32,000 nucleotides of DNA from Microcystis aeruginosa NIES-2549 (GTDB lineage: Bacteria; Cyanobacteriota; Cyanobacteriia; Cyanobacteriales; Microcystaceae). Below the pieces are notes generated by a model. The model worked only from the letters and a program-made list of their open reading frames with translations, was not told where the DNA came from and made no database searches. Positions 14,932-28,748 of the stretch are shown piece after piece. Position numbers and translations under genes: made by a program. Each line of letters begins with the position of its first letter. Position 1 is the stretch's first letter. The stretch is taken from positions 3,960,001 to 3,992,000 of the forward strand of contig NZ_CP011304.1 in NCBI RefSeq assembly GCF_000981785.2, given 5' to 3'.

Positions 14932-15439
14932 TGAATAACCCAAAGGGAAACAACAGGAGACAGAGCATCATTGTCTTATCTGTCTCGATTTGACACAGGG
15001 GGAACTTTGACGCTTATTGACACTCCCGTCGCTAAAAGCGAGGGATTCTTGGTTCAACGAGTCCACTTAAATTAGATGCCTTGCGTTATCCAACCCAGAG
15101 GTGGTTCTCTCCCCAAGCATTACTTTTCGTATGCCCCACGATAGTTGTATTTCTACAAAATTTGCTTGAATTGAAGTGTTAGCTTCAAATACTGCTTTGT
15201 CTAGTTCCTGCAAAGATTTTACCTACCTACAGGTAGAAACTAGAACAATTAGGCAGAACCCCAGCTCTTGATTGTCAAGGTGCAGATAGCGTAGTGATTA
15301 GACTACATGGGTTTTTAGAGCGGTTGATTACCCTATCCGCTATACTTGTATGGTAGCTATTTTGCCTGGATAGGTCAAGACCCTTAAAAGAAGAAGTTAT
15401 TCGAGATTTTGTCAGGAGACTGGACACCTATTTTTAATC

Positions 15440-15682
15440 GTGCTTCGTGTCACTGAGCTTGTCGAAGTGCTGTTCTAGGCTGCCCTTTGTTTCATCCCGT
15501 CGCTAAAAGCGAGGGCTTCGGCCGTGAGCTTAGCCGAACGGTCTTCACCCCGACATTTGAGATAAATAGTAACAAATATCACAGTCTATTGTTTGATGGA
15601 TATCCCCTCTCTACTCCACAGGGCAGAAAAGGCCCTACTCCCCATCTTTTCGGAAATTGACGCACAGGTCAAGGAAAATCTC
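15440..15682 (+). repeat. left copy of the long direct repeat bracketing the 11.9-kb segment (last 105 bp perfect)
   Basis: 15578-15682 is identical to 27507-27611 (offset 11,929 nt). 15440-15577 is a degenerate match to 27338-27506. Confidence 0.95.
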
Positions 15683-15733
15683 GCTAAAATCTTATTGGGA
15701 AAGTATGGCGAAGCGATTGATTTCCCTAGGTGA
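15596..15733 (+). pseudogene. 5' stub (29 identical codons) of the YnbB-like PLP-enzyme gene found intact at 27525
   Basis: ATG 15596 reads MDIPSLLHRAEKALLPIFSEIDAQVKENL, identical in nucleotides to 27525-27611. It then diverges (AKILLGKYGEAIDFPR) and stops at 15731-15733. Confidence 0.85.
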
Positions 15734-15901: not shown

Positions 15902-17188
15902 ATGACTCTTAACTTACCTAAACAAATAGTTCAGGCTAATCATCCTCATCCCGTGGCGATCGGCGAAATTGTCTCGATAGCGATCGAAGCCCTCTGGAGT
16001 AATAAACTGCGGACTTTGTTAACCATGTTAGGGGTGATTATTGGCATTGCCTCCGTGATTGCTCTCACCTCCGTAGGCCAAGGAGTACAAAAAGCCACCG
16101 AACAAAAAATTCAATCTCTAGGTACTAATGTTTTACAAATTTTACCCGGAGAAGCCAGAACCGGGGGGATTAGTCTCGGCCGCGGTTCCAGTAGTACCTT
16201 AATCTGGGAAGATGCCAAAGTTATTCAAAATCAAGTTCCTGGTGTGCAGGTGGTCTCCGCCTATCTGCAGCGTCCAGCACCAGTGGTGGCGGGCCAGGTC
16301 AATCATGCCACTAATGTGGTGGGAATCGATCTCAACTACATGAAAGCCAGAAATACAGAACTCAGCCAAGGTCGATTTTTTACCGAGGAAGAAATGGCAC
16401 AGGCGACACCAGTGGCGATTTTAGGCTCGACTCTGTTAACAGAACTCTTTGGCGATGATACTAATCCTATCGGCAAAAAGCTTTGGATTGAAAGAAAAAA
16501 TAGTTACGAAATTATTGGGGTATTTGAGCCAAAAGGTGCAGAAGGTTCGATTGATCGCGACGATCAGGTCTTTATTCCTCTGAGCAATATGTCTTCTCGT
16601 CTGGTGGGCAATAATTCTTTAAGTGGTAAGGCCGTTAACGGCATTTATGTCAAAGTTGACCAGCAAGATCAGATGAAAAATGCCGAGTATCAAATTACTA
16701 ATCTTTTGCGTCAGCGTCACAATCTCGCCGCTGCTCAAGCCGATGATTTTAGCATTAGAAACCAAACAGATGTGGTCAAAACCTTGACCACGGTAGTGGG
16801 TTTGTTTACAGTGATGCTGGTGGCTATCGCTGGCATTTCCCTAGTAGTCGGTGGTATTGGCATCGCTAATATCATGTTAGTTTCCGTGGTGGAACGCACC
16901 AGGGAAATCGGGATTCGCAAAGCTGTGGGGGCCACCCGTTCGGCCATCCTCCAGCAGTTTTTAGCGGAATCGGTGATGATTTCCCTGACTGGCGGCGGCA
17001 TCGGTGTATTATCGGGAATTTTAGTCGCCCTCTGTAGCGCCCAGATTTTCCGATTTCCCTTTGTCTTGTCAGGTTGGTCGATAATCAGTGGATTTGGCTT
17101 ATCTTTTATCGTTGGTTTGTTAGCAGGAGTAATTCCCGCCCGTTCTGCCGCTCATTTAGACCCGATTACCGCTTTACGACGGGATTGA
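15902..17188 (+). CDS. ABC transporter permease, MacB/DevC (FtsX-like) family
   Basis: 428-aa ORF with an N-terminal TM, a large periplasmic domain and a C-terminal FtsX-type 3-TM bundle (REIGIRKAVGATRSAILQQFLAES). Confidence 0.9.
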   Translation: MTLNLPKQIVQANHPHPVAIGEIVSIAIEALWSNKLRTLLTMLGVIIGIASVIALTSVGQGVQKATEQKIQSLGTNVLQILPGEARTGGISLGRGSSSTLIWEDAKVIQNQVPGVQVVSAYLQRPAPVVAGQVNHATNVVGIDLNYMKARNTELSQGRFFTEEEMAQATPVAILGSTLLTELFGDDTNPIGKKLWIERKNSYEIIGVFEPKGAEGSIDRDDQVFIPLSNMSSRLVGNNSLSGKAVNGIYVKVDQQDQMKNAEYQITNLLRQRHNLAAAQADDFSIRNQTDVVKTLTTVVGLFTVMLVAIAGISLVVGGIGIANIMLVSVVERTREIGIRKAVGATRSAILQQFLAESVMISLTGGGIGVLSGILVALCSAQIFRFPFVLSGWSIISGFGLSFIVGLLAGVIPARSAAHLDPITALRRD

Positions 17189-17200
17189 GGCCAATACATC

Positions 17201-17863
17201 CTAAAAAACGATTAAGCCATCTTGAAGACGGATCACCCGCCTAGTTTGGGCAGCTACATCAGGATCGTGGGTGACAATCACAATCGTGATCCCCTGTTGA
17301 TTGAGTTCGGTTAGTAAATCCATCAGTTCTTGGGAAGTTTGTGTATCTAAGGCCCCCGTCGGCTCATCGGCCAACACCAGAGCCGGTTGATTAACTAGGG
17401 CCCGGGCGATGGCGACTCGCTGTTGTTGTCCCCCGGAAAGTTGGCTAGGCCGATTGTGGAGATAATTAGTCAACCCAACTCTAGCTAAAGCTTGCATCGC
17501 TCTTTGACGGCGCCTTGGCTTGGGAACATTGGCATAGACCATCGGCAACATGACATTTTCTAGGGCAGTGGAGCGGGACAATAAATTAAATTGTTGGAAG
17601 ACAAAGCCAATCCTCTGATTGCGAATATATGCCAGTTGGTTATCGTCCAAGTTCTTTAAGTTTCTGCCTTCTAAAATATATTGTCCCCCCGTCGGGCGAT
17701 CGAGGCAGCCGATAATATTCATCAGGGTTGATTTCCCGGAACCCGAAGCTCCCATAATGGACACGTATTCCCCTGACTGAATTTCCAGATCTATGCCCCG
17801 AAGAACAGGAATTTTCACTTCCCCTAGAGAGTAAATTTTTGTAATTGTCTGCAAGAAAATCAT
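17201..17863 (-). CDS. ABC transporter ATP-binding protein, MacB/DevA/LolD-like
   Basis: Walker A GASGSGKST, signature LSGGQQQRVAIARAL and Walker B LVLADEPTGALD. ATG 17863 (MIFLQTITKIYSLGEV) is preferred over the upstream Met at 17923. It is convergent with the permease, with 12 nt between the stops. Confidence 0.9.
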   Translation of the reverse strand: MIFLQTITKIYSLGEVKIPVLRGIDLEIQSGEYVSIMGASGSGKSTLMNIIGCLDRPTGGQYILEGRNLKNLDDNQLAYIRNQRIGFVFQQFNLLSRSTALENVMLPMVYANVPKPRRRQRAMQALARVGLTNYLHNRPSQLSGGQQQRVAIARALVNQPALVLADEPTGALDTQTSQELMDLLTELNQQGITIVIVTHDPDVAAQTRRVIRLQDGLIVF

Positions 17864-18144
17864 CGTTTTTACCAGGGGTGATTTAATACCCACATTCCGC
17901 AGGTTGACAAACAAAAAAATCATTAAACCTGAAAGCCTTTCTGTGCAAGGGCTTCATCTAATTTAGTTCACTTGAATTAATCTGTTTCTTGATATTGATA
18001 ATGAATCCTCCTTATTGAGAATTTGTTGAGCAAGGCTTGTACGATATTGCTTTGCGAAAATTATCCCTCTTTTGTCAGTTTAGGAAATTTCCAGGAAATT
18101 AGGCCGTTTCAGCCCAAGATAAATCAAGGTTTGACAAAAGAGGG

Positions 18145-18265
18145 GGGAGCATCTCACCTTTGTAACCCCTAAATCAGGTTTTATGTCAAGCTATTTTGAA
18201 AGCCTTGCTAGAAACCAGTTTTAGGGACAAGTGTAATTACTCACTTGCATAAATAAGATACTCCC
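18145..18265. mobile_element. ~121-bp MITE, copy R1, with 12-bp terminal inverted repeats and an 8-bp target-site duplication
   Basis: TIRs are GGGAGCATCTCA and TAAGATACTCCC (2 mismatches). It is flanked by AAAGAGGG at 18137-18144 and at 18266-18273. It aligns with R2 over its full length. Confidence 0.8.
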
Positions 18266-18438
18266 AAAGAGGGATATTTATGAAGTGGAATCTGAACTGC
18301 GGAATGTTGGATATAATCCAATTATAGTCATTTCAGATAAGTCTGATACACTCTAGACCGACAAAACCCTTATGAACTCTGGGATTGATATTCTCAATCT
18401 TAATTGAAATGACTATATGTACTAAAAACAGGAAATTC

Positions 18439-19092
18439 ATGACAGATATTCACTCGATCATCGGTATATTCCCCTCCAATGAAGAAGCAAACACAGTTGT
18501 ATTGGAGTTACAAAAAAAAGGCTTCGATATCAAAAAACTTTCATTGCTAAAAACCATTGGCACCCCAAACATAGAGGGTGCAGACTTCCACCCACCTCAC
18601 CCGGCAGGAATTCAACCCCCTCACCCAGAGGGGATGCAGCCTCCTTACCACCCAATGGGCATTCAACCCCCTCATCTGGAAGGAGTTCAACCTCCTGTCT
18701 CAGAAAGAGTTGAACCCCTTCATCCGGAAGGGGTTCAACCCCCCTGTACTCATTTCTTGCCCGGAAGATTACCATCTTCAGCAGTTGGCTTGGCCTTAGT
18801 AGGAGCAGAAGCAGCTGGAATACTATTTATTCCAGGCACAGGACCTGTTTTGATTGCCGGACCGATTGCGAGAACACTGGTAAGTTATGTGGAAAAAATG
18901 ATTACTGATGGCCTTGATCCGGCGGCAATCTCAGCAACTGGGGGACTAACAGAGGGATTGGGCATTCCCAAGCATAAAGCACTGCAATACGAGACTGAAA
19001 TCAGAGCAGGCAAATATGTTTTGCTGATATCGGGGAGTGAGGAAGATGTCAGTCAAGCTAAAAATAGCAGTGGAAGCATCTCACCTTTGTAA
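18439..19092 (+). CDS. stress-protein-like (YflT/DUF1269-like) glycine-zipper membrane protein with a Pro-rich octapeptide-repeat insert
   Basis: ATG 18439 is preceded by AGGA. The N-terminal domain (IIGIFPSNEEANTVVLELQKKGFDIKKLSLL) and C-terminal domain (IRAGKYVLLISGSEEDVSQAK) flank a Gly-rich hydrophobic segment. The last 7 codons and the stop come from MITE R2. The family call rests on recalled domain architecture, not a search. Confidence 0.65.
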   Translation: MTDIHSIIGIFPSNEEANTVVLELQKKGFDIKKLSLLKTIGTPNIEGADFHPPHPAGIQPPHPEGMQPPYHPMGIQPPHLEGVQPPVSERVEPLHPEGVQPPCTHFLPGRLPSSAVGLALVGAEAAGILFIPGTGPVLIAGPIARTLVSYVEKMITDGLDPAAISATGGLTEGLGIPKHKALQYETEIRAGKYVLLISGSEEDVSQAKNSSGSISPL

Positions 19093-19193
19093 CCCCTAAA
19101 TCAGGTTTTTATGTCAATCTATTTTGAAAGCCTTGCTAGAAAACAGTTTTAGGGATAAATATAATTACTCACCTGCATGAATGAGATGCTCCC
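19072..19193. mobile_element. ~122-bp MITE, copy R2
   Basis: TIRs are GGAAGCATCTCA and TGAGATGCTCCC. Flanks are AATAGCAG(T) at 19063-19071 and AATAGCAG at 19194-19201. The interior is near-identical to R1 (CCTTTGTAACCCCTAAATCAGGTTTT.ATGTCAA.CTATTTTGAAAGCCTTGCTAGAAA.CAGTTTTAGGGA). Confidence 0.8.
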
Positions 19194-19299
19194 AATAGCA
19201 GAATAGCAGTCTTACTTCGCCTAAAGGGAGCATACCATTTTCGTAAAATTATTACCAATAGTAAGGCAATAGAAAGGGTTTCAGTTCCCCTGAGAATGG

Positions 19300-19395
19300 C
19301 TAACGTGCCAAATTGGGATGCTCCCCGCCTAAAAGATAAATTTTTGTAATCGTCTGCCAGAAAATCATCGTTTTTACCACGGGTGTTTTGGGATA
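19300..19395 (-). pseudogene. duplicated 5' UTR plus first ~22 codons of the DevA-like ATPase gene
   Basis: TAAATTTTTGTAATCGTCTGCCAGAAAATCATCGTTTTTACCACGGGTG matches 17832-17880 with 3 mismatches in 49 nt. It reads MIFWQTITKIYLLGGEHPNLAR* against the intact MIFLQTITKIYSLGEVKIPVLRG. Confidence 0.75.
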
Positions 19396-19713
19396 ATTTT
19401 GTCCTAGAAATTAGGTTAAGCACTGGAATGTCAAAAATGGCACTATGTTAACAAATATAAAGTAAATTTTTTCAGTGCTGTTTGACTATCAACTGCTATT
19501 TTTATCGGTAAGTTCCAACTATGTCCACATTTAAAGATGAATGTATCCAACTTTGTCCACTTTCTGGGAGTTATCTCAACTAGACACTTGATTAAAACTC
19601 TTTTTTTGCTCAAGAGAGGAAATTATTAAGAAATAAAAAATATCTGGAATCACTGGCAAATAGTGAGAATAAAATAAAAAAACTAAATAGTAAATATACG
19701 GAGAAATCAATCA

Positions 19714-20043
19714 ATGTTAACACCAAGACATCCTCACCCCCCCGCTGCCCCGCAAAGCCCTCCTCCTGGTGTGCCTCAAAGTCCTCCTCCCGGAGCGCAT
19801 CAAGGGTTTCCACCTGGTGGACACCAGAACAATCCTCCGGGGACACCGCAGCCCTTTGCACCGACTGGGGCAGGACCGGCCAATCTACCGCGTCTAACAG
19901 AACAAGATCAAGAACTCTTAAAACAATTACTCGGTAATGATGAACAGGCTCAAGCTTTAGGGGGAATGTTACAAAACTCACCGCCAGAAATTGCCGCTTT
20001 GGGTTATTTAATCTTACGAGTCTTTGAACGTAGTCAGTCCTAA
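19714..20043 (+). CDS. small hypothetical protein: Pro-rich N-terminal half, helical C-terminal half
   Basis: 109-aa ORF with GGAGA about 10 nt upstream of the ATG. The C-terminal half (NLPRLTEQDQELLKQLLGNDEQAQALGGMLQNSPPEIAALGYLILRVF) looks like a folded helical domain. A longer antisense ORF exists, but it is explained by the stop-free complement of Pro codons. Confidence 0.5.
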   Translation: MLTPRHPHPPAAPQSPPPGVPQSPPPGAHQGFPPGGHQNNPPGTPQPFAPTGAGPANLPRLTEQDQELLKQLLGNDEQAQALGGMLQNSPPEIAALGYLILRVFERSQS

Positions 20044-20367: not shown

Positions 20368-21981
20368 ATGAACTCAGAACAAAAAATCAATACTCCCCAA
20401 AACGTCCCAGCACCAACACCATTTCCTAATCAGTCAGGAGTGATGCCCTCATTGCCGCCCACAGATGCCGGCCGGGGGGCGCCTCATAATCAAGGTGGAG
20501 TGAGTCCCTTCATGCCGCCCCCCTTGCCAGGAGATATCGAACCACCGCCCCATCCCCCCGACGGTACACCGTTGCCGAATGTCTGGATTTATGAAGGAGA
20601 AGCCTATGATCTCACGGAATTTATTGCCAAGCATCCGGGGGGACAATTTTTTATTGGACGTACCAAGAACAGAGATATAACCACGATTGTCAATATCTTT
20701 CATCCCAATCCTGAAAGAGTCAAAAAAGTCCTGCAAAAATATTCCCTTGGACAACAGGGAAGACCAGAGCATATTCATCCTAAATACAACGCTCCTGCCT
20801 TCTTATTTAAAGAGCATTTTAATGGTTGGCGGGATACTCCTCGCTATGATTTCCGCAACCCAGAACAATTGCTTAATAAGATTAAAGCCAGAGTTTACTC
20901 TCCAGAATTTAAACAGAAAGTGGAGCGCATGGATTTTCTGTTTAATGTTATCAGTATCTGTCTTTTTCTTATCTATTTTGTGGTGCAAGGGCTGTACTTA
21001 GAGGCCAGACAGTATATGCCGATTTACCTATTTGTGCCTCTCATCGCTATGCTAAGAATCGCCCTAGCAGGGGTAGGTCACTACCTAATTCATCGGCCAC
21101 AAGTGGGATTAAACAAGGTATTTGCCAATATTTTTGATATTAACTACGTTCCCCTCGCTTTAGTAGTAACAGACGGTCATACTTTACTGCATCATCCCTT
21201 TACCCAAACCGATGTTGATATCAAAAAGAATGTTTTCACCTTCATGTTAGAATTGCCTCGTTTTTATCGAGTTCCAGTACATACATTCCATAAAATAGGC
21301 CATGTGGTTACGGGAATGTTTGTTCGCATTATGGAATTATGTATCCTCGCTTTTAAAGCAGGTGTTAAGAATATGTATGGCAGTTGGCAGCTGGGATTAC
21401 CCCATTTTTTAGGTAGTTTTGGTATTCACTTATTACTATTAATCGAACTGGTTATCTTTTGTCTATACGGCCAATTTTGGGCTTGGTTAGCGCAGTTTTT
21501 CCTTACCCTCTGGATTAGCACTTTTATGATTGTGGCTAGTCATGATTTTGAAGCCGAAGAACCGCCAATAGATCCTATGGCACCACCTCAATGGGAAACC
21601 CAAGATTGGGCGGTTATGCAGATTAAAAATTCCTACGATTTGACTATGGTAGGTAATAAGTATATTGACTGTTTTCTCTCGGCGGGCTTGGCTCCCCACC
21701 GGGTGCATCACGTTCTTCCCCAACAAAAAAGTGGTTTTGCCAATATCATCAGTGAAGATATTGTCCGGGAAGAATCGGAAAAATTCGGAGTTGAATGGGC
21801 GGCACCTCAAAACTTCTTTTTTGACCGCCTACCAGGGCTAATTAAACACTATCTAGCTGTGCCATCCCGATTAGCCAAAGAGAAGGAGTTGGGATTATTG
21901 AAAGAACATTTTCACCCGCAAGCCTTAAGAACAACCCTAGACTATATTGTCAAAGGTTGGGCTGGTATTGGTTCAATTTGA
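20368..21981 (+). CDS. cytochrome b5-fused membrane fatty-acid desaturase/hydroxylase family protein with a Pro-rich N-terminal extension
   Basis: 537-aa ORF. The b5 heme-binding motif is EFIAKHPGGQFFIG, with a second His in NIFHPN. His boxes are GHYLIH (HxxxH), HTLLHH (HxxHH) and HRVHH (HxxHH), separated by TM segments. Confidence 0.85.
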   Translation: MNSEQKINTPQNVPAPTPFPNQSGVMPSLPPTDAGRGAPHNQGGVSPFMPPPLPGDIEPPPHPPDGTPLPNVWIYEGEAYDLTEFIAKHPGGQFFIGRTKNRDITTIVNIFHPNPERVKKVLQKYSLGQQGRPEHIHPKYNAPAFLFKEHFNGWRDTPRYDFRNPEQLLNKIKARVYSPEFKQKVERMDFLFNVISICLFLIYFVVQGLYLEARQYMPIYLFVPLIAMLRIALAGVGHYLIHRPQVGLNKVFANIFDINYVPLALVVTDGHTLLHHPFTQTDVDIKKNVFTFMLELPRFYRVPVHTFHKIGHVVTGMFVRIMELCILAFKAGVKNMYGSWQLGLPHFLGSFGIHLLLLIELVIFCLYGQFWAWLAQFFLTLWISTFMIVASHDFEAEEPPIDPMAPPQWETQDWAVMQIKNSYDLTMVGNKYIDCFLSAGLAPHRVHHVLPQQKSGFANIISEDIVREESEKFGVEWAAPQNFFFDRLPGLIKHYLAVPSRLAKEKELGLLKEHFHPQALRTTLDYIVKGWAGIGSI

Positions 21982-22134
21982 GCCAACAAAAACCAGAAAT
22001 TCTGTCGGAAAGTTTCGGGAAAATTATTGGGCATCTTACGGATATAATAAAGACCCAGACTTTTCCCTAGCTTTCCAGGCAATTGGTTGACAGAAACCCT
22101 CCCTATAATACCTAAACTGGTTCTGATATTTGCC

Positions 22135-23322
22135 ATGCAATCTTCTCAGTTTTTACCTGTCATTGAAAGTCTCGCCACTGGCACTCCGGGCAATCTTGTC
22201 CAACAAACGGATGCCGCTAAATTTTTAGCTAACCTCAAAGGTCTAGAGAAGAATCAACATCGTATCGAAAAAATCTACGAACATACCCGGATTGACACTA
22301 GGCATCTAGCTATTAACTTATTAACTGAAGAAACTGTTAACTTTAGTCGAGAAGAGGGAACTATTGAACAACGAATGCAAATGTACGAAAAATATGGGCT
22401 TCCCCTAGCAGAAGATGTGGCGAGAAGAGTTATTTTAGCCGCATCGGAGCAACAGAAAAAGCATAATCCTTTGAGTACAGAAAAGATCGAGGATTCTATT
22501 GGTCTAATCGTATTCGTCACCAGTACAGGCTTTGTTGCCCCGGGTATAGATGCTCAATTAATTAAAAGTTTAGGACTTCGACGCAACATTGCTAGAGTGC
22601 CAGTTAATTTTATGGGTTGTGCAGCCGCAATGAATGGTTTACGAGTAGCCTGTGATCATGTAAGAGCCAACCCTGAGCATAAAGCTTTAGTAATTTGTTT
22701 AGAATTAAGTTCTATTAATGCCGTTTTTCAAGATGATTTAAATGACATTATCATTCATAGTATTTTTGGTGATGGTTGTGCGGCAGTAGTAATCGGAGCC
22801 TACGAACCAGAACAAATACAAGGTCGAGGAAAATTTATCATTCGGGATAATTTTAGTTATCTGGCTGAAAATACCGAAGACGGGATTACCTTAGGCATTA
22901 GAGACAATGGTATTACCTGTCTGCTGTCCCGTCAATTACCTGATTATATTGAGTCTGGTGTCGGTCGAATTATTACTAATTTTCTGAATAGTCATGAGAT
23001 AACCAAGGAAGATATTGATTTATGGATGGTTCACCCTGGAGGGACAAAAATTATTGAAAAAGTGCAACTTTCCCTAGATTTAAATGATGAACAAGTGGCC
23101 GATAGTTGGGGAGTTCTCCGTCAATACGGCAACCTACTTAGTTGTGCGATTTTATTTGTAATGGAACGCATGATCTTAAGATTAGAACAAGGATGTGAGA
23201 CGCAAGCTCTTAAACAAAATAACAGCGGAGTTACTCGTCAAAACGCCGCATCTTTGACAGGTTTGGCCTTCTCTTTTGCCCCAGGAGTTGGTATTGAAGG
23301 AATTCTCCTAGAAAAGATTTAA
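22135..23322 (+). CDS. type III polyketide synthase (chalcone/stilbene synthase superfamily)
   Basis: Cys-His-Asn triad in type III PKS contexts: NFMGCAAAMNGL, WMVHPGGTKII (HPGG is typical of type III PKS, not FabH) and YGNLLSCAILFVM, plus IFGDGCAAVVIG. ATG 22135 (MQSSQFLPVIESLATGTP) is preferred over TTG 22087. Confidence 0.88.
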   Translation: MQSSQFLPVIESLATGTPGNLVQQTDAAKFLANLKGLEKNQHRIEKIYEHTRIDTRHLAINLLTEETVNFSREEGTIEQRMQMYEKYGLPLAEDVARRVILAASEQQKKHNPLSTEKIEDSIGLIVFVTSTGFVAPGIDAQLIKSLGLRRNIARVPVNFMGCAAAMNGLRVACDHVRANPEHKALVICLELSSINAVFQDDLNDIIIHSIFGDGCAAVVIGAYEPEQIQGRGKFIIRDNFSYLAENTEDGITLGIRDNGITCLLSRQLPDYIESGVGRIITNFLNSHEITKEDIDLWMVHPGGTKIIEKVQLSLDLNDEQVADSWGVLRQYGNLLSCAILFVMERMILRLEQGCETQALKQNNSGVTRQNAASLTGLAFSFAPGVGIEGILLEKI

Positions 23323-23365
23323 CCCCACCCTTGAAAATCTATCACCGGACAGGAGGACAAAATTA

Positions 23366-25291
23366 ATGGAATTTTTGAGATTTTTGCTGGCCATATCCTG
23401 GAAACATATCACTATTGCTATCGTAGCAGGTTTAGTTAGCGGTGTTGGCAACGCTCTTTTAATTTCTTTGATTAATCGAGAAGTCCATGAGGGTCATGCG
23501 GTCAATGCTCTACAATACTTTAGTATCTTGGCCATATTTATTATAGTGACCAGCATGATCTCGCAATTTATGCTGATTTTTCTCTCGCAGAATGCTATCT
23601 ATGAACTGCGAGTGAAATTGAGTAAAAATATTTTGTCCTCTCCTTTAGAACATCTAGAGAGACTGAAAGAAAATCGTCTTTTGGTTAGTTTTACCGATGA
23701 TGTTCATACCCTAACTCATGCAGTGGCATCCGTGCCGAATATCTGTGTGGATTTTGCTACAGTTGTCGGCTGTTTCGTTTACTTTGCTTGGCTATCTAAT
23801 GCCCTTTTCGTCTTAACGATAGCTTCTACTGTTAGTGCCATCTGGTTTGTGCAAACGATCCTGAATAAAGCCGAACGTTTATTTTTTAAGTCGAGGGAAG
23901 AAGAAGACACCCTATTTAAGGATTTTAAAGCCTTGATGAGCGGCATCAAAGAACTCAAGCTCAATCAGTCCAAAAGGCAGGCTTTTATGGAGAAGGAATT
24001 GCAGAGTAGTGCTGTACGGCTTCGGCAACTAAATACCAAAGCGATGAAAAGATTTGCGATCGCTAACGGGTTTGGACAACTATCTCAGTTTCTCAGTTTG
24101 GGATTTATTCTGTTCATTCTACCTTTGTTTTTAGACATTCCTTTAACGATGTTGGCCGCCTATGTTTTAATTGGTACTTTCATCGCCTTGCCAATGCAGA
24201 ATATGCTCAATCGCATTCCTGAATTAGTCCGGGGAAATATTGCCCTGCGAAAAATTGAAAGGATGAAATTATCTCTCTCCAGTCTCTCGGAAGCAGATAC
24301 CCTAGTTTTATCCATCAGTCCCTCCTGTCAACTACAATTTCAAGCTGTCACCTATCTCTATCACCCAGAATTACCACCTTTCCCCCCCGAAGGTTCTCCC
24401 GAAGGCCATCCACCTTTCCCCCCCGAAGGTTCTCCCGAAGGCCATCCACCTTTCCCCCCCGAAGGTTCTCCCGAAGGCCATCCACCTTTCCCCCCCGAAG
24501 GTTCTCCCGAAGGCCATCCACCCTTTCCTCATAATGGTCTTTCTCAAGGTTTTGCCAATAGTTTACCAGCACTAGCACCAGAATCCCCCTCCTCCGAGAA
24601 GAAACCAATTCCCTTTCCATCCCATCCCCCCTATTCTCAAAAAGGCAACCCACCACCACCGCCAAGGACAGATGAAAAAGGATTTCTGCTCGGACCAATT
24701 AGCTTTTCTTGGCAACCAGGGGAACTGATCTTTATTATTGGCGGCAATGGCAGCGGCAAGTCAACTTTAGCTAAACTAATTACAGGACTATACCCACCCC
24801 TATCGGGAGCAATTTACCTCAATGGTAAACGTATTACCCAAGATAATGTGGAGTGGTATCGTCAACATTTCTCGGCAATTTTCTATGATTTTTACTTATT
24901 CGATAGTTTTCTCGGTTTTGATCGCCCCAATCTCGATCAAGAGGTAGAAAATTATCTGATGCAACTGCAATTAGCCCATAAAGTCACGGTCAAAAATGGA
25001 GTTTTATCCACCACAGAACTATCTCAAGGACAAAGGAAACGACTGGCTTTATTAACAGCCTATTTAGAGGATCGTCCTATCTATGTGTTTGATGAATGGG
25101 CCGCCGACCAAGAACCCCGTTTTAGGGAACTATTCTATAAACAGATACTGCTACAACTGAAAGAAAGAGGAAAAATAGTTATTGTTATTAGCCATGATGA
25201 GCGCTATTTTCATCTAGCCGATCATATTATTAAGCTCGATTATGGTGCTGTGGAATCGGAACAGACTGTTCAACAATCAGGTTCTCTCTAA
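23366..25291 (+). CDS. ABC exporter of the SyrD/PvdE-like 'cyclic peptide transporter' type, with a ~95-aa Pro-rich insert between TMD and NBD
   Basis: AGGAGG lies 8 nt upstream of the ATG. The 6-TM N-terminal half starts MEFLRFLLAISWKHITIAIVAGLVSG. The NBD has Walker A GGNGSGKST, signature LSQGQRKRLALL and Walker B IYVFDEWAADQEP. Confidence 0.88.
   Translation: MEFLRFLLAISWKHITIAIVAGLVSGVGNALLISLINREVHEGHAVNALQYFSILAIFIIVTSMISQFMLIFLSQNAIYELRVKLSKNILSSPLEHLERLKENRLLVSFTDDVHTLTHAVASVPNICVDFATVVGCFVYFAWLSNALFVLTIASTVSAIWFVQTILNKAERLFFKSREEEDTLFKDFKALMSGIKELKLNQSKRQAFMEKELQSSAVRLRQLNTKAMKRFAIANGFGQLSQFLSLGFILFILPLFLDIPLTMLAAYVLIGTFIALPMQNMLNRIPELVRGNIALRKIERMKLSLSSLSEADTLVLSISPSCQLQFQAVTYLYHPELPPFPPEGSPEGHPPFPPEGSPEGHPPFPPEGSPEGHPPFPPEGSPEGHPPFPHNGLSQGFANSLPALAPESPSSEKKPIPFPSHPPYSQKGNPPPPPRTDEKGFLLGPISFSWQPGELIFIIGGNGSGKSTLAKLITGLYPPLSGAIYLNGKRITQDNVEWYRQHFSAIFYDFYLFDSFLGFDRPNLDQEVENYLMQLQLAHKVTVKNGVLSTTELSQGQRKRLALLTAYLEDRPIYVFDEWAADQEPRFRELFYKQILLQLKERGKIVIVISHDERYFHLADHIIKLDYGAVESEQTVQQSGSL
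24374..24517 (+). repeat. four perfect 36-bp tandem repeats (plus a degenerate fifth at 24518-24540) inside the ABC exporter CDS
   Basis: The unit CCACCTTTCCCCCCCGAAGGTTCTCCCGAAGGCCAT occurs at 24374, 24410, 24446 and 24482. It encodes (PPFPPEGSPEGH)x4 in frame. Confidence 0.97.
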
Positions 25292-25317
25292 ATTAACCCA
25301 CCAGTTTCTTACTCACT

Positions 25318-26877
25318 ATGTCAGATAGTTCCTCCTTCCAAAAACTTAACAAACAGCCCGCAATTAGCTGGGCATTGGGATTACTAGCTTTATTTTTAGC
25401 CATTGGTGGTATTGTTCTCGCCTATCGTCAGTTTGGGCATACCCCCCACCGGGATAGTTCCCGTCCGCTGCCTGTAGCCGTGGAACAGACGGATTTAACG
25501 ATCATCGTTTCCGCTAATGGCACTGTGGAACCGGAAAAAGTGGTTAATGTTAGCCCTAAAACAGCAGGAATTTTGAAGGAACTGCTAGTAGATGAGGGTT
25601 ATACTGTCAAAAAAGGACAGATAATTGCTAAAATGGACGATTCTGATTGGCAGGGTCAATTATTAGAATCCCAGGGCAAACTAGCGGCAGCCCAAGCTAA
25701 TCTCCGCAAACTAATCGCCGGTAATCGTCCCCAAGAAATCGCTCAGGCCCAAGCGAAACTGGAACAACTAGAAGCCAACCTACAAAAGCTGATGGCCGGT
25801 AATCGTTCTCAGGAAATTGCCCAAGAAAAAGCTCGTTTAGAAGGTTTAAAAGCCATTTTCCAAAAATCTGATGATGAATATCGTCGCAATCAGCTACTTT
25901 TCAACGAAGGAGCCATATCTCAACAGACTTTAAACGAAAAACTGGCAACTAGGGATAGCGCCCAGGCTGCCGTGATTGAATCCCAAGAAAAGCTATCTCT
26001 CCTTAAAGAAGGAACTCGCTCGGAAGAAATTGCTCAAGCAAAGGCGGAAGTGAGAAATCAACAACAGGTCTTAGACCTTCTCCAAGCAGGAACAAGACAG
26101 GAGGAAATCGATCAAGCACGGGCGGAGGTGACTACTGCTCAGGGTTCTCTACAAAATGTCAAAACTCAGATTGAGGATACCATCATCAAAGCACCCTTTG
26201 ACGGGGTGGTTACTTTTGTCTACGCTGAACCGGGGGCCTTTGTCGCTCCTACTACGACCGGCAGTTCCGTATCTTCGGCCACTTCTTCCTCGATTTTATC
26301 CCTGGTTTCACAAAATGAAGTGGTCAGCAATGTAGCAGAAAAAAACATTGATAAGATCCGGGTTGGGCAAAAGGTGACGATTACAGCCGATGCTTATCCC
26401 GATAAAATCTTCCATGGACGAGTCTCTCTGATTGCCACCCAGGCAACGGTAGAACAAAATGTCACCAGTTTTGAAGTGAAAGTGACCCTAGAAGAAAAGG
26501 CGGCCAGGGAATTAAAGGCGGGAATGAATGTTTCTACCGATTTCCAAGTCGGCCAACTGAAAAACGCTTTAACCGTGCCAACTATTGCCGTTACCCGTCA
26601 GAACGAGCAAACTGGTGTTTTTGTTGGCGCACCTAACCAACCACCCCGATTTGTCCCCATTACCACTGGCGTTACTATCGGCAATCGTACCGAAGTTAAA
26701 AGCGGACTCGATGGCTCCGAACATATCTTAATTAATCCACCCTCGGACACCCGACCAAGGCAAGGTTTTTCTTGGCAAAGTCTCTTTGGTGGTGGGGGGA
26801 ACGAACCTGCTGCCGGTGGCCCTCCCCCCGGGGCCCCACCACAGGGAGCCTCACCCCCCCCAAGTGGGCCGCTCTAA
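25318..26877 (+). CDS. HlyD/DevB-family periplasmic adaptor (membrane fusion protein) with a Gly/Pro-rich C-terminal tail
   Basis: Signal-anchor TM (ISWALGLLALFLAIGGIVLAY), a lipoyl-like domain, a long coiled coil with four G(N/T)RxxEIxQAxA repeats, and a beta-barrel. It starts 26 nt after the ABC exporter stop. Confidence 0.9.
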   Translation: MSDSSSFQKLNKQPAISWALGLLALFLAIGGIVLAYRQFGHTPHRDSSRPLPVAVEQTDLTIIVSANGTVEPEKVVNVSPKTAGILKELLVDEGYTVKKGQIIAKMDDSDWQGQLLESQGKLAAAQANLRKLIAGNRPQEIAQAQAKLEQLEANLQKLMAGNRSQEIAQEKARLEGLKAIFQKSDDEYRRNQLLFNEGAISQQTLNEKLATRDSAQAAVIESQEKLSLLKEGTRSEEIAQAKAEVRNQQQVLDLLQAGTRQEEIDQARAEVTTAQGSLQNVKTQIEDTIIKAPFDGVVTFVYAEPGAFVAPTTTGSSVSSATSSSILSLVSQNEVVSNVAEKNIDKIRVGQKVTITADAYPDKIFHGRVSLIATQATVEQNVTSFEVKVTLEEKAARELKAGMNVSTDFQVGQLKNALTVPTIAVTRQNEQTGVFVGAPNQPPRFVPITTGVTIGNRTEVKSGLDGSEHILINPPSDTRPRQGFSWQSLFGGGGNEPAAGGPPPGAPPQGASPPPSGPL

Positions 26878-27337
26878 TCATTCCTATTGTCAACCTTGGC
26901 AGATGTTTTCAGCGGAAGGATTGACGTTGTATGATCAGTAGGCTTGTTGACAATCCCCGAAGCGCTCAGGCGAGGGATTCTTGAAGCTCATCACCGCGCT
27001 TTCTGGTTTCCCCTACTCACGTCTTACACGATTATGTCCTATCCGAACCTACTAGAATATCACTTGTTATCTAGTTGTCCACTTGTGGATAGCTCTCCAA
27101 GCGTTTTGGTCTTTCAACCAAGATTCGGGTATGCCCTACCCTATCTGCCTTACGGCAAAATGTTTTTAGTTTATTTCAGTCTTGGAAAAGACTTACTCCC
27201 CTGTTTTAAGAGTTTTCGGGTGGCTCTTGTCTTCTTTTTTCTCCTCAAAAGTGCCGTACTATTGCAACGGGATTTCCACGATGTGAGCGGCATTTCAACC
27301 TGTTGACTCTTGGATTTTAACACAACTGTTTAGAGTT

Positions 27338-27611
27338 GTGCTTCGTGTCACTGAGCCTTGACATTGAGCCTGTCGAAATGTGTCGAAATGTGTCGAAATG
27401 TGGACACTGAGCCTGTCGAAGTGCTGTTCTATATTGGTCGGCTTTTCATCTCCGAGGTAAAACCGAGGGTTTCTCCAAGCCGACATTTAAGGTAAATGCA
27501 ATACAGATCACAGTCTATTGTTTGATGGATATCCCCTCTCTACTCCACAGGGCAGAAAAGGCCCTACTCCCCATCTTTTCGGAAATTGACGCACAGGTCA
27601 AGGAAAATCTC
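27338..27611 (+). repeat. right copy of the long direct repeat (last 105 bp perfect); contains the promoter region and 5' end of the intact PLP-enzyme gene
   Basis: See the left copy at 15440-15682. This copy also carries (TGTCGAAATG)x3 at 27371-27400, which is absent from the left copy. Confidence 0.95.
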
Positions 27612-28748
27612 CGTCAAGTCCTCGCTGCTTTCCGTGCAAACCGCGTCGGGGTGCATCATTTTGCTAGTGTTAGCGGTTATGGTCATGATGACTTGGGACG
27701 GGATACTTTAGATCAAGTGTTCGCCCAAGCCCTGGGGGCCGAAAAGGCAGCGGTGCGAGTACAATTTGTTTCAGGAACCCATGCGATCGCCTGTGCCTTG
27801 TATGGGGTTCTTCGACCGGGGGATGAGATGTTAGCGGTAGCGGGTGCGCCCTACGATACCCTAGAGGAAGTAATCGGGATTAGGGGCAGTGGTCAAGGCT
27901 CTTTAAAAGATTTTGGCGTTAGTTATCGGCAATTAGAGCTAGATTCTACTGGTGCGATCGATTGGTTGTCCTTGGCAACGGCAGTGAAACCCCAAACCCG
28001 TTTAGTACATATTCAAAGATCCTGCGGTTATTCCTGGCGATCGAGTTTGTCTATTGACGAAATCGAGAGAATTGTCCGTATAGTTAAACAACAAAACCCG
28101 AATACGGTCTGTTTTGTCGATAATTGCTATGGGGAATTTATCAACACCCAAGAACCCACCGATGTGGGGGCAGATCTGATGGCCGGTTCTCTAATTAAAA
28201 ACCCCGGAGGTACAATTGTCACGGCTGGGGGATACATAGCAGGTAAAGCGGAATTAGTGGAAATGGCCTGCTATCGTCTGACAGCACCTGGAATCGGTAG
28301 CGAGGGAGGGGCAACTTTTGACCAAAATCGTCTTCTTTATCAGGGATTGTTTCTAGCGCCGCAAATGGTGGGAGAAGCGATGAAAGGCAGTCATTTAATT
28401 GCCTATGTGGGCGATAAGTTGGGTTATCCGGTCAATCCTGCTCCTTTTGTGCCTCGACGCGATATTATTCAAGCGATTAAACTCGGTTCCCCCGATAAGC
28501 TGATCGCCTTCTGTAAAGCCATTCAAGCCTATTCTCCCATCGGTTCCTACTTGGATCCCATTCCTGCCCAAATGCCGGGCTATGAGAGCCAAGTAGTGAT
28601 GGCTGGTGGCACTTTTATCGATGGCAGCACCTCGGAATTCTCCGCCGATGGACCCCTACGGGAACCCTATATCGTTTTTTGTCAGGGGGGAACCCATTGG
28701 ACTCATATTTCCCTGGCCCTAGAACAAGCGATCGCCGCTTTATCTTAA
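27525..28748 (+). CDS. YnbB-like / 'aluminium resistance' family PLP-dependent enzyme (Met gamma-lyase-like fold)
   Basis: 407-aa ORF with the family-typical N-terminus (VHHFASVSGYGHDDLGRDTLDQVFA), VSGTHAI and the PLP-Lys context GSLIKNPGG. ATG 27525 is preferred over TTG 27522. Confidence 0.85.
   Translation: MDIPSLLHRAEKALLPIFSEIDAQVKENLRQVLAAFRANRVGVHHFASVSGYGHDDLGRDTLDQVFAQALGAEKAAVRVQFVSGTHAIACALYGVLRPGDEMLAVAGAPYDTLEEVIGIRGSGQGSLKDFGVSYRQLELDSTGAIDWLSLATAVKPQTRLVHIQRSCGYSWRSSLSIDEIERIVRIVKQQNPNTVCFVDNCYGEFINTQEPTDVGADLMAGSLIKNPGGTIVTAGGYIAGKAELVEMACYRLTAPGIGSEGGATFDQNRLLYQGLFLAPQMVGEAMKGSHLIAYVGDKLGYPVNPAPFVPRRDIIQAIKLGSPDKLIAFCKAIQAYSPIGSYLDPIPAQMPGYESQVVMAGGTFIDGSTSEFSADGPLREPYIVFCQGGTHWTHISLALEQAIAALS

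Follow-up and report, generated by a model that had tools for sequence, protein, structure and literature searches.

The 32-kb stretch of Microcystis aeruginosa NIES-2549 DNA analysed here (NZ_CP011304.1, positions 3,960,001 to 3,992,000; the window in what follows) carries a gene cluster centered on a type III polyketide synthase (PKS) and a cytochrome-b5-fused desaturase-like enzyme. A preliminary description of the same DNA had proposed an orphan operon of four genes for the synthesis and export of a phenolic lipid. Its general idea, a fatty-acyl-primed type III PKS product that would be tailored by a di-iron enzyme and exported, is supported by sequence comparison. With moderate confidence, the cluster is read here as making and secreting an oxidatively tailored long-chain acyl polyketide, probably a lipid of the alkyl-alpha-pyrone type. 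The genes concerned, with a repeat inside one of them, are:

15902-17188, plus strand: MacB-type permease (Pfam MacB_PCD, 158 bits; FtsX, 73 bits)
17201-17923, minus strand: split MacB/DevA-type ABC ATPase, in opposite orientation to the other cluster genes (ABC_tran, 121 bits)
20368-21981, plus strand: desaturase-like gene, 537 aa, encoding a Pro-rich tail (aa 1-72), a cytochrome b5 domain and a predicted, divergent membrane di-iron desaturase/hydroxylase domain with four transmembrane (TM) helices
22135-23322, plus strand: type III PKS gene of the PKS18 (long-chain alkylpyrone synthase) clade by Pfam, PDB scores and tunnel residues; 395 aa from the ATG, or 411 aa if the in-frame upstream TTG at 22087 is the start
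23366-25291, plus strand: half-size ABC exporter gene (transmembrane domain followed by nucleotide-binding domain, NBD), 641 aa, PvdE/SyrD 'cyclic peptide exporter' subfamily (TIGR01194, Pfam)
24374-24528, plus strand: perfect 36-nt tandem repeat, 4.3 copies, encoding PPFPPEGSPEGH in the exporter NBD (TRF)
25318-26877, plus strand: membrane-anchored periplasmic adaptor gene of the HlyD/membrane fusion protein type, 519 aa (HlyD_D23/HlyD_3, TIGR01730)

The four genes from desaturase to adaptor share the plus strand and are separated by 153 nt (105 nt from the PKS TTG), 43 nt and 26 nt; the co-directional, closely spaced arrangement described previously is borne out by the open reading frame (ORF) coordinates. 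All four gene identities hold against Pfam and NCBIfam, with the qualification that for the desaturase Pfam gives only Cyt-b5. The remaining genes of the window are housekeeping genes (cta genes, dnaA, ahcY, dxr, desC and others). Genes for a methyltransferase, an acyl-AMP ligase, an acyl carrier protein (ACP), a type I PKS or a nonribosomal peptide synthetase (NRPS) do not occur anywhere in the 32 kb, an absence that had been claimed at the outset. An Rfam search of the whole window gave no match, and the predicted fold of the 153-nt spacer between desaturase and PKS is unremarkable (z = -1.9).

The conservation of this arrangement was followed by searching one genome per species with an alignment of the desaturase, which yielded 52 loci from many cyanobacterial orders and from Mycobacterium-type Actinomycetota (50-55% desaturase identity). 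Presence was counted in informative loci, those with enough flanking DNA. The PKS adjoins the desaturase gene in 47 of 48 such loci, and the ABC exporter is linked to the pair in 39 of 43, in Cyanobacteria and Actinomycetota alike. Less widespread are the HlyD adaptor (19/38) and the orthologues of the MacB-type permease (15/35) and the ATPase (16/35). The desaturase gene lies upstream of the PKS in all but 2-3 loci, and no other biosynthetic gene is conserved across the synteny loci. As dozens of genomes in the two phyla share the gene order, the arrangement is more than chance. The conserved core is the desaturase-PKS-ABC exporter triad, whose loci are relatives of the rv1371-pks18 operon of Mycobacterium tuberculosis (Mtb). 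The usual cyanobacterial order is desaturase-PKS-ABC exporter-HlyD-MacB-type permease-ATPase (15-16 loci besides Microcystis), and the four-gene unit first described is therefore too small: the permease and ATPase orthologues at 15902-17188 and 17201-17923 belong to it too.

The actinobacterial loci have the triad between coaX and lysS, preceded by a gene for an LppX/LprAFG-family lipoprotein and followed by a Sulfotransfer_1 gene, an arrangement that is an expanded form of Mtb rv1371-rv1372(pks18)-rv1373. Two Actinomycetota metagenome-assembled genomes (MAGs; L044 and L047, about 14.7-17 kb) carry a second PKS and exporter pair, a tandem duplication downstream of a single desaturase gene. Mis-binning is likely for two further contigs: L004, attributed to a Crocinitomicaceae MAG, is 98% identical to the Microcystis cluster, and L051, attributed to 'Candidatus Sericytochromatia', has the actinobacterial panC-panD-coaX-LppX synteny.

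Synthesis enzymes

The PKS is recognized by Pfam as Chal_sti_synt_N and Chal_sti_synt_C (85.5 and 78.8 bits; cut-off 27). It matches a protein of M. aeruginosa NIES-2549 with 100% identity and is 97-98% identical to the PKSs of other Microcystis strains. Its closest solved relatives are 7CB3, a 'chalcone synthase-like protein' (355 bits), PKS18 (1TED, 347 bits) and Ectocarpus PKS1 (4B0N, 302 bits); all other solved type III PKSs score at most 131 bits. The Cys/His/Asn triad, correctly described before as intact, aligns with C175/H313/N346 of PKS18 and is invariant in 48 orthologues. The acyl tunnel of PKS18 is lined by A52, S143, T144, C205, N208, A209, H221, L266 and L348 (PMC6274091, PMC7064976). 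All of these residues are identical in the window PKS apart from C205, which is replaced by Ser, and this pattern, including C205S, is kept in all 40 cyanobacterial orthologues examined.

The residue at the cyclisation site distinguishes resorcinol formers, which have Trp (ArsB), from pyrone formers, which have Gly (ArsC) or Leu (PKS18) (PMC7064976). The window PKS has Leu at this cyclisation-determining position, 266. A long-chain alkylpyrone is the best guess because the cyclisation residue is Leu rather than Trp in a PKS18-clade enzyme, and the sequence thus favours an alkylpyrone over an alkylresorcinol as the probable product type; an acyl-phloroglucinol or a resorcinol is a conceivable alternative. 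The phenolic lipid of the preliminary description, in the sense of an alkylresorcinol, consequently becomes the less likely chemistry, while its notion of a fatty-acyl-primed enzyme is supported. The expectation that the pathway would be unusually minimal does not stand, as comparable cyanobacterial clusters generally lack an ACP or ligase: a 2023 review describes type III PKS clusters of the alkylpyrone and hierridin types without either, the acyl-ACP probably being drawn from primary metabolism (PMC10088813).

The desaturase-like protein carries a Pfam Cyt-b5 domain at residues 73-129, and an alignment of 38 orthologues shows invariant haem ligands at H89, within the HPGG motif (H89-G92), and at H112. 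Three His boxes are invariant in the same alignment (H238xxxH242, H271xxxHH276 and H444xxHH448). Hydrophobic helix pairs span residues 187-241 and 344-391, and the His boxes are canonically placed after TM2 and TM4. PF00487 (FA_desaturase) is matched by 9 of the 38 orthologues, which are 59-77% identical to the window protein (best E 4.8e-10); in orthologue P0174 the match reaches 35.7 bits (gathering score 29.7) and covers profile positions 5-225 of 253. These features point to a cytochrome-b5-fused, desaturase/hydroxylase-like enzyme with a divergent membrane di-iron domain. An AlphaFold2 (AF2) model built from the 38 orthologues has a mean confidence (pLDDT) of 67.6, with residues 261-292, the loop of the second His box, below 50. 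The N-terminal tail (20368-20583) is Pro/His-rich, and a conserved EPPPxPxxGxPLPNVW precedes the b5 domain.

Export genes and cluster borders

The exporter matches Pfam ABC_membrane and ABC_tran and exceeds the cut-off of TIGR01194, 'cyclic peptide export ABC transporter' (423.7 against 286.2 bits), while falling below that of the YojI equivalog PRK10522 (374.7 against 604). The JGI label for its orthologues is 'putative pyoverdin transport system'. The adaptor has one N-terminal TM helix and scores 159.9 bits with TIGR01730 RND_mfp (cut-off 94.9). The best NCBIfam match of the ATPase is the N-terminal half of MacB; its true start is probably Met21 at 17863, and in the sister genome L055 (CP012375.1) the called gene is 220 aa. 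The Microcystis permease is 67-73% identical to cluster-linked permeases in 15 loci and the ATPase 74-80% identical to its counterparts in 16 loci, against merely 28-37% for a paralogous pump of Rivularia. Adaptor, MacB_PCD/FtsX permease and ATPase together form a MacAB-type set that is co-inherited across loci; no gene for an outer-membrane factor lies within the window.

Which of these components work together bears on the model originally put forward, in which a self-contained four-gene operon would direct the synthesis of an alkylresorcinol and its secretion through a type-I-secretion-like pump of the SyrD-like exporter and the HlyD adaptor. The adjacency, shared direction and 26-153 nt gaps of the genes speak for it, as does the fact that HlyB-type exporters can work with HlyD adaptors. 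Some 20 loci, though, all those of Actinomycetota among them, have the exporter but no adaptor linked to the cluster, and the adaptor is confined to lineages that carry the permease and ATPase orthologues, which in Microcystis lie with it inside one repeat-bounded segment. On these grounds the adaptor is best placed in a split MacAB-type pump, and most likely it would partner the MacB-type pump (15902-17923) instead of the SyrD-like exporter. On the chemical side, alkylresorcinols are the only products characterised to date from cyanobacterial type III PKSs (PMC8086630), whereas the Leu at the cyclisation site is of the pyrone-former type. The four-gene model as a whole is accordingly considered unlikely. 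In Chamaesiphon L005, the closest relative outside Microcystis, a YHYH-domain protein (16925-18010) lies between adaptor and ATPase in place of the MacB-type permease. The pump genes were therefore rearranged before, or in parallel with, the change seen in Microcystis.

The tandem repeat in the exporter (TRF score 301, 99% matches) encodes a His/Pro-rich insertion that directly follows the A-loop strand in the ATPase domain. Its copy number is polymorphic among Microcystis, with 1-4 units giving alleles of 593-641 aa, of which the window allele is the longest. The same site holds HPPFPPEGFGENG in Chamaesiphon and HPPHG in Mycobacterium MAGs, while in some orthologues the insertion is missing. 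Over 14.5 kb the sister genome and the window are 99.97% identical, apart from three indels; in its counterpart of 23366-26877 the exporter is called as two genes of 402 and 197 aa (L055 5844-7768) and the adaptor as 540 aa (L055 7795-9417). Every repeat unit contains a C7 run, so these indels could be sequencing error or slippage.

Further features mark the borders and the upstream part of the cluster:

15424-15691, unstranded: left copy of a direct repeat of about 270 nt (repeat families D3, D5, D9)
27322-27620, unstranded: right copy of this bounding repeat, overlapping the true start of the flanking lyase gene
27525-28748: flanking gene of the Met-gamma-lyase family
18439-19092, plus strand: 'Prich1', a Pro/His-rich small membrane protein (called gene of 217 aa in L055)
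19714-20043, plus strand: 'Prich2', a small Pro-rich protein of 109 aa, directly upstream of the desaturase gene (called gene in L055)

The two copies of the bounding repeat share a core of 121 nt at 94% identity in pairwise alignment and enclose exactly eight genes, from permease through adaptor. The cluster is an accessory, repeat-bounded segment of about 11.6 kb, at about 15.7-27.3 kb of the window. In the left copy, the last 121 nt repeat the sequence just before the Met-gamma-lyase-family gene together with its first ~33 codons. That gene was considered as a cluster member and rejected, being linked in Microcystis loci only and having its 5' end duplicated at the far border; it is taken to be flanking DNA, its 5' end having been copied during insertion or rearrangement of the segment. 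A search for island-free alleles ('empty sites') by exact-protein look-ups of desC and the lyase was uninformative: towards the island, every metagenomic contig with desC breaks off after at most a few hundred bases, and the lyase matched the sister genome only. The border regions also contain hairpin-like repeated elements, TCCCGTCGCTAAAAGCGAGGGATTC, at 15024-15048, 15495-15519 and 27449-27473, and a 10-nt tandem repeat of 3.2 copies at 27371-27402.

Prich1 is found in Microcystis only, matches no Pfam or NCBIfam family, contains internal 24-nt repeats (D2) and is flanked by direct repeats of about 130 nt (D4/D8); its membership in the cluster is uncertain. The ~130-nt copies (18136-18267 and 19063-19195) are 89-90% identical. 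The 3' end of one ORF recurs in both, pointing to a tandem duplication that has since decayed. The ATPase start region (17823-17884) is repeated over 62 nt, at 87% identity, 1.5 kb away (19328-19389). With the inverted ATPase, these repeats are further scars within the segment. The minus-strand ORF at 19169-19423 was examined as an ATPase fragment and discarded, since it gives no protein-level alignment and only this 62-nt DNA repeat is present. Prich2 is conserved at the same position in L003, L006, L005, L007 and L008 (phmmer E 1e-17 to 1e-66) and precedes the desaturase gene in Microcystis and in three Chamaesiphon loci. Related low-complexity segments rich in Pro and His recur in the desaturase tail (20368-20583), in 18439-19092, in 19714-20043 and at the adaptor C-terminus (26790-26877).

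Proposed pathway and its alternatives

The analysis shows the gene identities, the conserved synteny and the conservation of catalytic and tunnel residues; from these we infer a substrate, a product, an order of steps and a pairing of the transporters. The PKS18-clade enzyme would load a long fatty acyl thioester, either acyl-CoA or acyl-ACP borrowed from fatty-acid synthesis, extend it with two or three malonyl units and close the ring by lactonisation. The cytochrome-b5-fused di-iron enzyme, using O2 and electrons delivered through its own haem domain, would desaturate or hydroxylate the alkyl chain or the ring, acting on either the finished product or the starter. The PvdE/SyrD-family half-transporter would then carry the amphiphile over the cytoplasmic membrane, and a MacAB/PvdRT-like pump made up of the adaptor (25318-26877), the permease (15902-17188) and the ATPase (17201-17923) would pump it out of the periplasm by way of an outer-membrane channel whose gene lies elsewhere. 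The strongest argument for an exported lipid is that each phylum joins the same core to envelope-crossing components of its own.

Several observations weigh against this account. For the ring, the PKS clade that includes the window enzyme also includes the phloroglucinol-making Ectocarpus PKS1, and Leu266 therefore does not fix the cyclisation mode; to our knowledge, the in vivo product is known for no member of this clade, PKS18 included. For the tailoring step, the window protein itself has no match to Pfam FA_desaturase even at E<=10. Since a Foldseek search of the AF2 model against the PDB and a PDB sequence profile search matched only the cytochrome b5 domain, there is no structural support for or against a desaturase fold. 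For export, the pairing of the transporters is argued from co-occurrence, the permease and ATPase of Microcystis lie about 8 kb from the adaptor with the ATPase inverted, and the capacity of HlyB-type exporters to use HlyD adaptors has been mentioned above. Promoter and terminator scans gave counts not above those of shuffled sequence and are silent on operon structure.

A different order of steps would have the desaturase-like enzyme act before the PKS, with an unsaturated or hydroxylated acyl group on a lipid or a CoA/ACP carrier becoming the PKS starter. Front-end desaturases typically combine an N-terminal cytochrome b5 domain containing HPGG with three His boxes, the third of which is QxxHH. 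The window protein shares with these acyl-lipid and acyl-CoA desaturases the N-terminal fusion, the HPGG motif and the three boxes, and the position of its gene upstream of the PKS in nearly all loci agrees with an early role. The third box, however, reads HRVHH (HxxHH), not QxxHH, and no feature of the sequence discriminates the substrate. This order, a variant of the favoured pathway and not a separate system, is given a low probability. Very unlikely is a PKS that makes phloroglucinol or a similar small, non-lipid aromatic with malonyl-CoA as its sole substrate, with the membrane enzyme and exporters handling a small molecule: Ectocarpus PKS1 is the third closest solved relative, but the long acyl tunnel of PKS18 is conserved here (C205S aside), Ectocarpus PKS1 itself has such a tunnel (PMC6274091), and the partners are a membrane-embedded oxygenase and, in the mycobacterial versions, lipid carriers of the LppX family.

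The pathway favoured here, an oxidatively tailored and exported long-chain acyl polyketide, can be extended into a broader and clearly more speculative reading. The triad may be of ancient origin, a module passed horizontally between Cyanobacteria and Mycobacteria, and would make hitherto undetected, oxidised alkylpyrone or acyl-phloroglucinol envelope lipids and export them with phylum-specific hardware, a MacAB-like pump in one case and an LppX-type carrier with a sulfotransferase in the other. As parts of the same tentative reading, the lipid would modulate surface or colony properties in bloom-forming Microcystis, and the copy-number-variable His/Pro-rich repeat of the exporter would tune or dock the machinery.

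For experimental work, the six-gene unit with its two-step export indicates which genes to co-express, and the conserved long-chain tunnel and pyrone-type residue indicate the masses to seek, in secreted or outer-envelope lipids.

Comparison with known systems

The NIES-2549 cluster is an already described orphan cluster of Microcystis. Larsen et al. (2021; PMC8086630) classified this type as 'Clade 3.1' / cytochrome b5 on the basis of 16 clusters, including those of Microcystis SPC777 and NIES-1211, and reported a cytochrome b5 gene upstream, transporters nearby, PKS18 as the nearest enzyme and an unknown product. Yancey et al. (2022; bioRxiv 10.1101/2022.10.12.511943) found the Microcystis 'T3PKS' cluster to be abundant and highly transcribed in Lake Erie blooms. 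A 2026 review of Microcystis still lists the type III PKS products as uncharacterised (PMC12838216), and no later characterisation of the cluster was found in the literature. The term orphan thus holds insofar as the product is still unnamed, and comparison with the literature gave no match to a characterised pathway with a known product; the cluster is not newly noticed, though (PMC8086630; bioRxiv 10.1101/2022.10.12.511943). Identity with the published cluster is evident from the cytochrome b5 gene directly upstream of a PKS18-like type III PKS and from the ABC and 'RND'-annotated transport genes. Little is added as discovery, because the family was described in those two studies. The refinements over them are the recognition of the 'cytochrome b5' protein as desaturase-like, an ancestral order of six genes, the displacement of permease and ATPase in Microcystis, and the bounding repeats, together with the reassigned adaptor, the pyrone-type chemistry and the cross-phylum core. 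Larsen et al. (2021) also suggested a downstream 'sulfhydrylase' as a cluster member, a membership unsupported here given the restriction of the lyase gene to Microcystis loci and its duplicated 5' end.

Among export systems, the nearest parallel is the two-step secretion of pyoverdine, in which the inner-membrane ABC exporter PvdE is followed by the MacAB-like PvdRT-OpmQ; SyrD and PseEF act similarly on syringomycin. The Microcystis cluster likewise combines a TIGR01194-family exporter with a membrane-fusion protein and a MacB-type permease and ATPase. It differs in that a polyketide lipid would take the place of the peptide siderophore, in that MacB is split into a permease gene and an ATPase gene, and in that the window has no gene for an outer-membrane factor. 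The analogy drawn earlier with DevBCA, which together with HgdD exports the heterocyst glycolipid across the cyanobacterial envelope, is sound in architecture, both systems having an adaptor, an FtsX-type permease and a separate ATPase. At the level of families it fails, the scores lying below the cut-offs for DevB (TIGR02971, 104.3 against 129) and DevA (TIGR02982, 202.1 against 295.8), and Microcystis does not form heterocysts.

On the biosynthetic side, the cluster resembles the hierridin pathway (hid) and the alkylresorcinol pathways ArsABCD of Azotobacter and SrsABC of Streptomyces in its oxygenase tailoring and in a type III PKS that, by analogy, would be fatty-acyl-primed; as in hid, there is no dedicated ACP. 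Unlike these systems, it has a PKS of another clade with Leu instead of Trp, no methyltransferase, and an oxygenase that is a membrane di-iron/cytochrome b5 fusion rather than a flavoprotein.

Another counterpart is the rv1371-pks18 operon of Mtb. The desaturase (50-55%) and PKS (46-48%) have Mycobacterium-type orthologues in the same order, and the tunnel and catalytic residues of Mtb PKS18, an alkylpyrone synthase (PDB 1TED), are conserved in Microcystis. The Mtb operon has a sulfotransferase and no ABC exporter, whereas Microcystis has no sulfotransferase in the window and has added a MacB-type tripartite pump. Environmental mycobacterial loci contain an LppX-like lipoprotein, desaturase, PKS, ABC exporter and sulfotransferase, the last in Mycobacterium locus L045. 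The genes rv1371, rv1372 and rv1373 are co-transcribed and influence lipid profiles, tolerance to SDS and the infection of macrophages, the product not being identified (PMC13141999, 2026). Mtb thus holds the same enzyme pair as Microcystis, and its in vivo product has been an open question since 2003 that the 2026 knockout study could not answer. If the broader reading of the triad is true, solving the cyanobacterial product would also show what PKS18 and Rv1371 make in M. tuberculosis.

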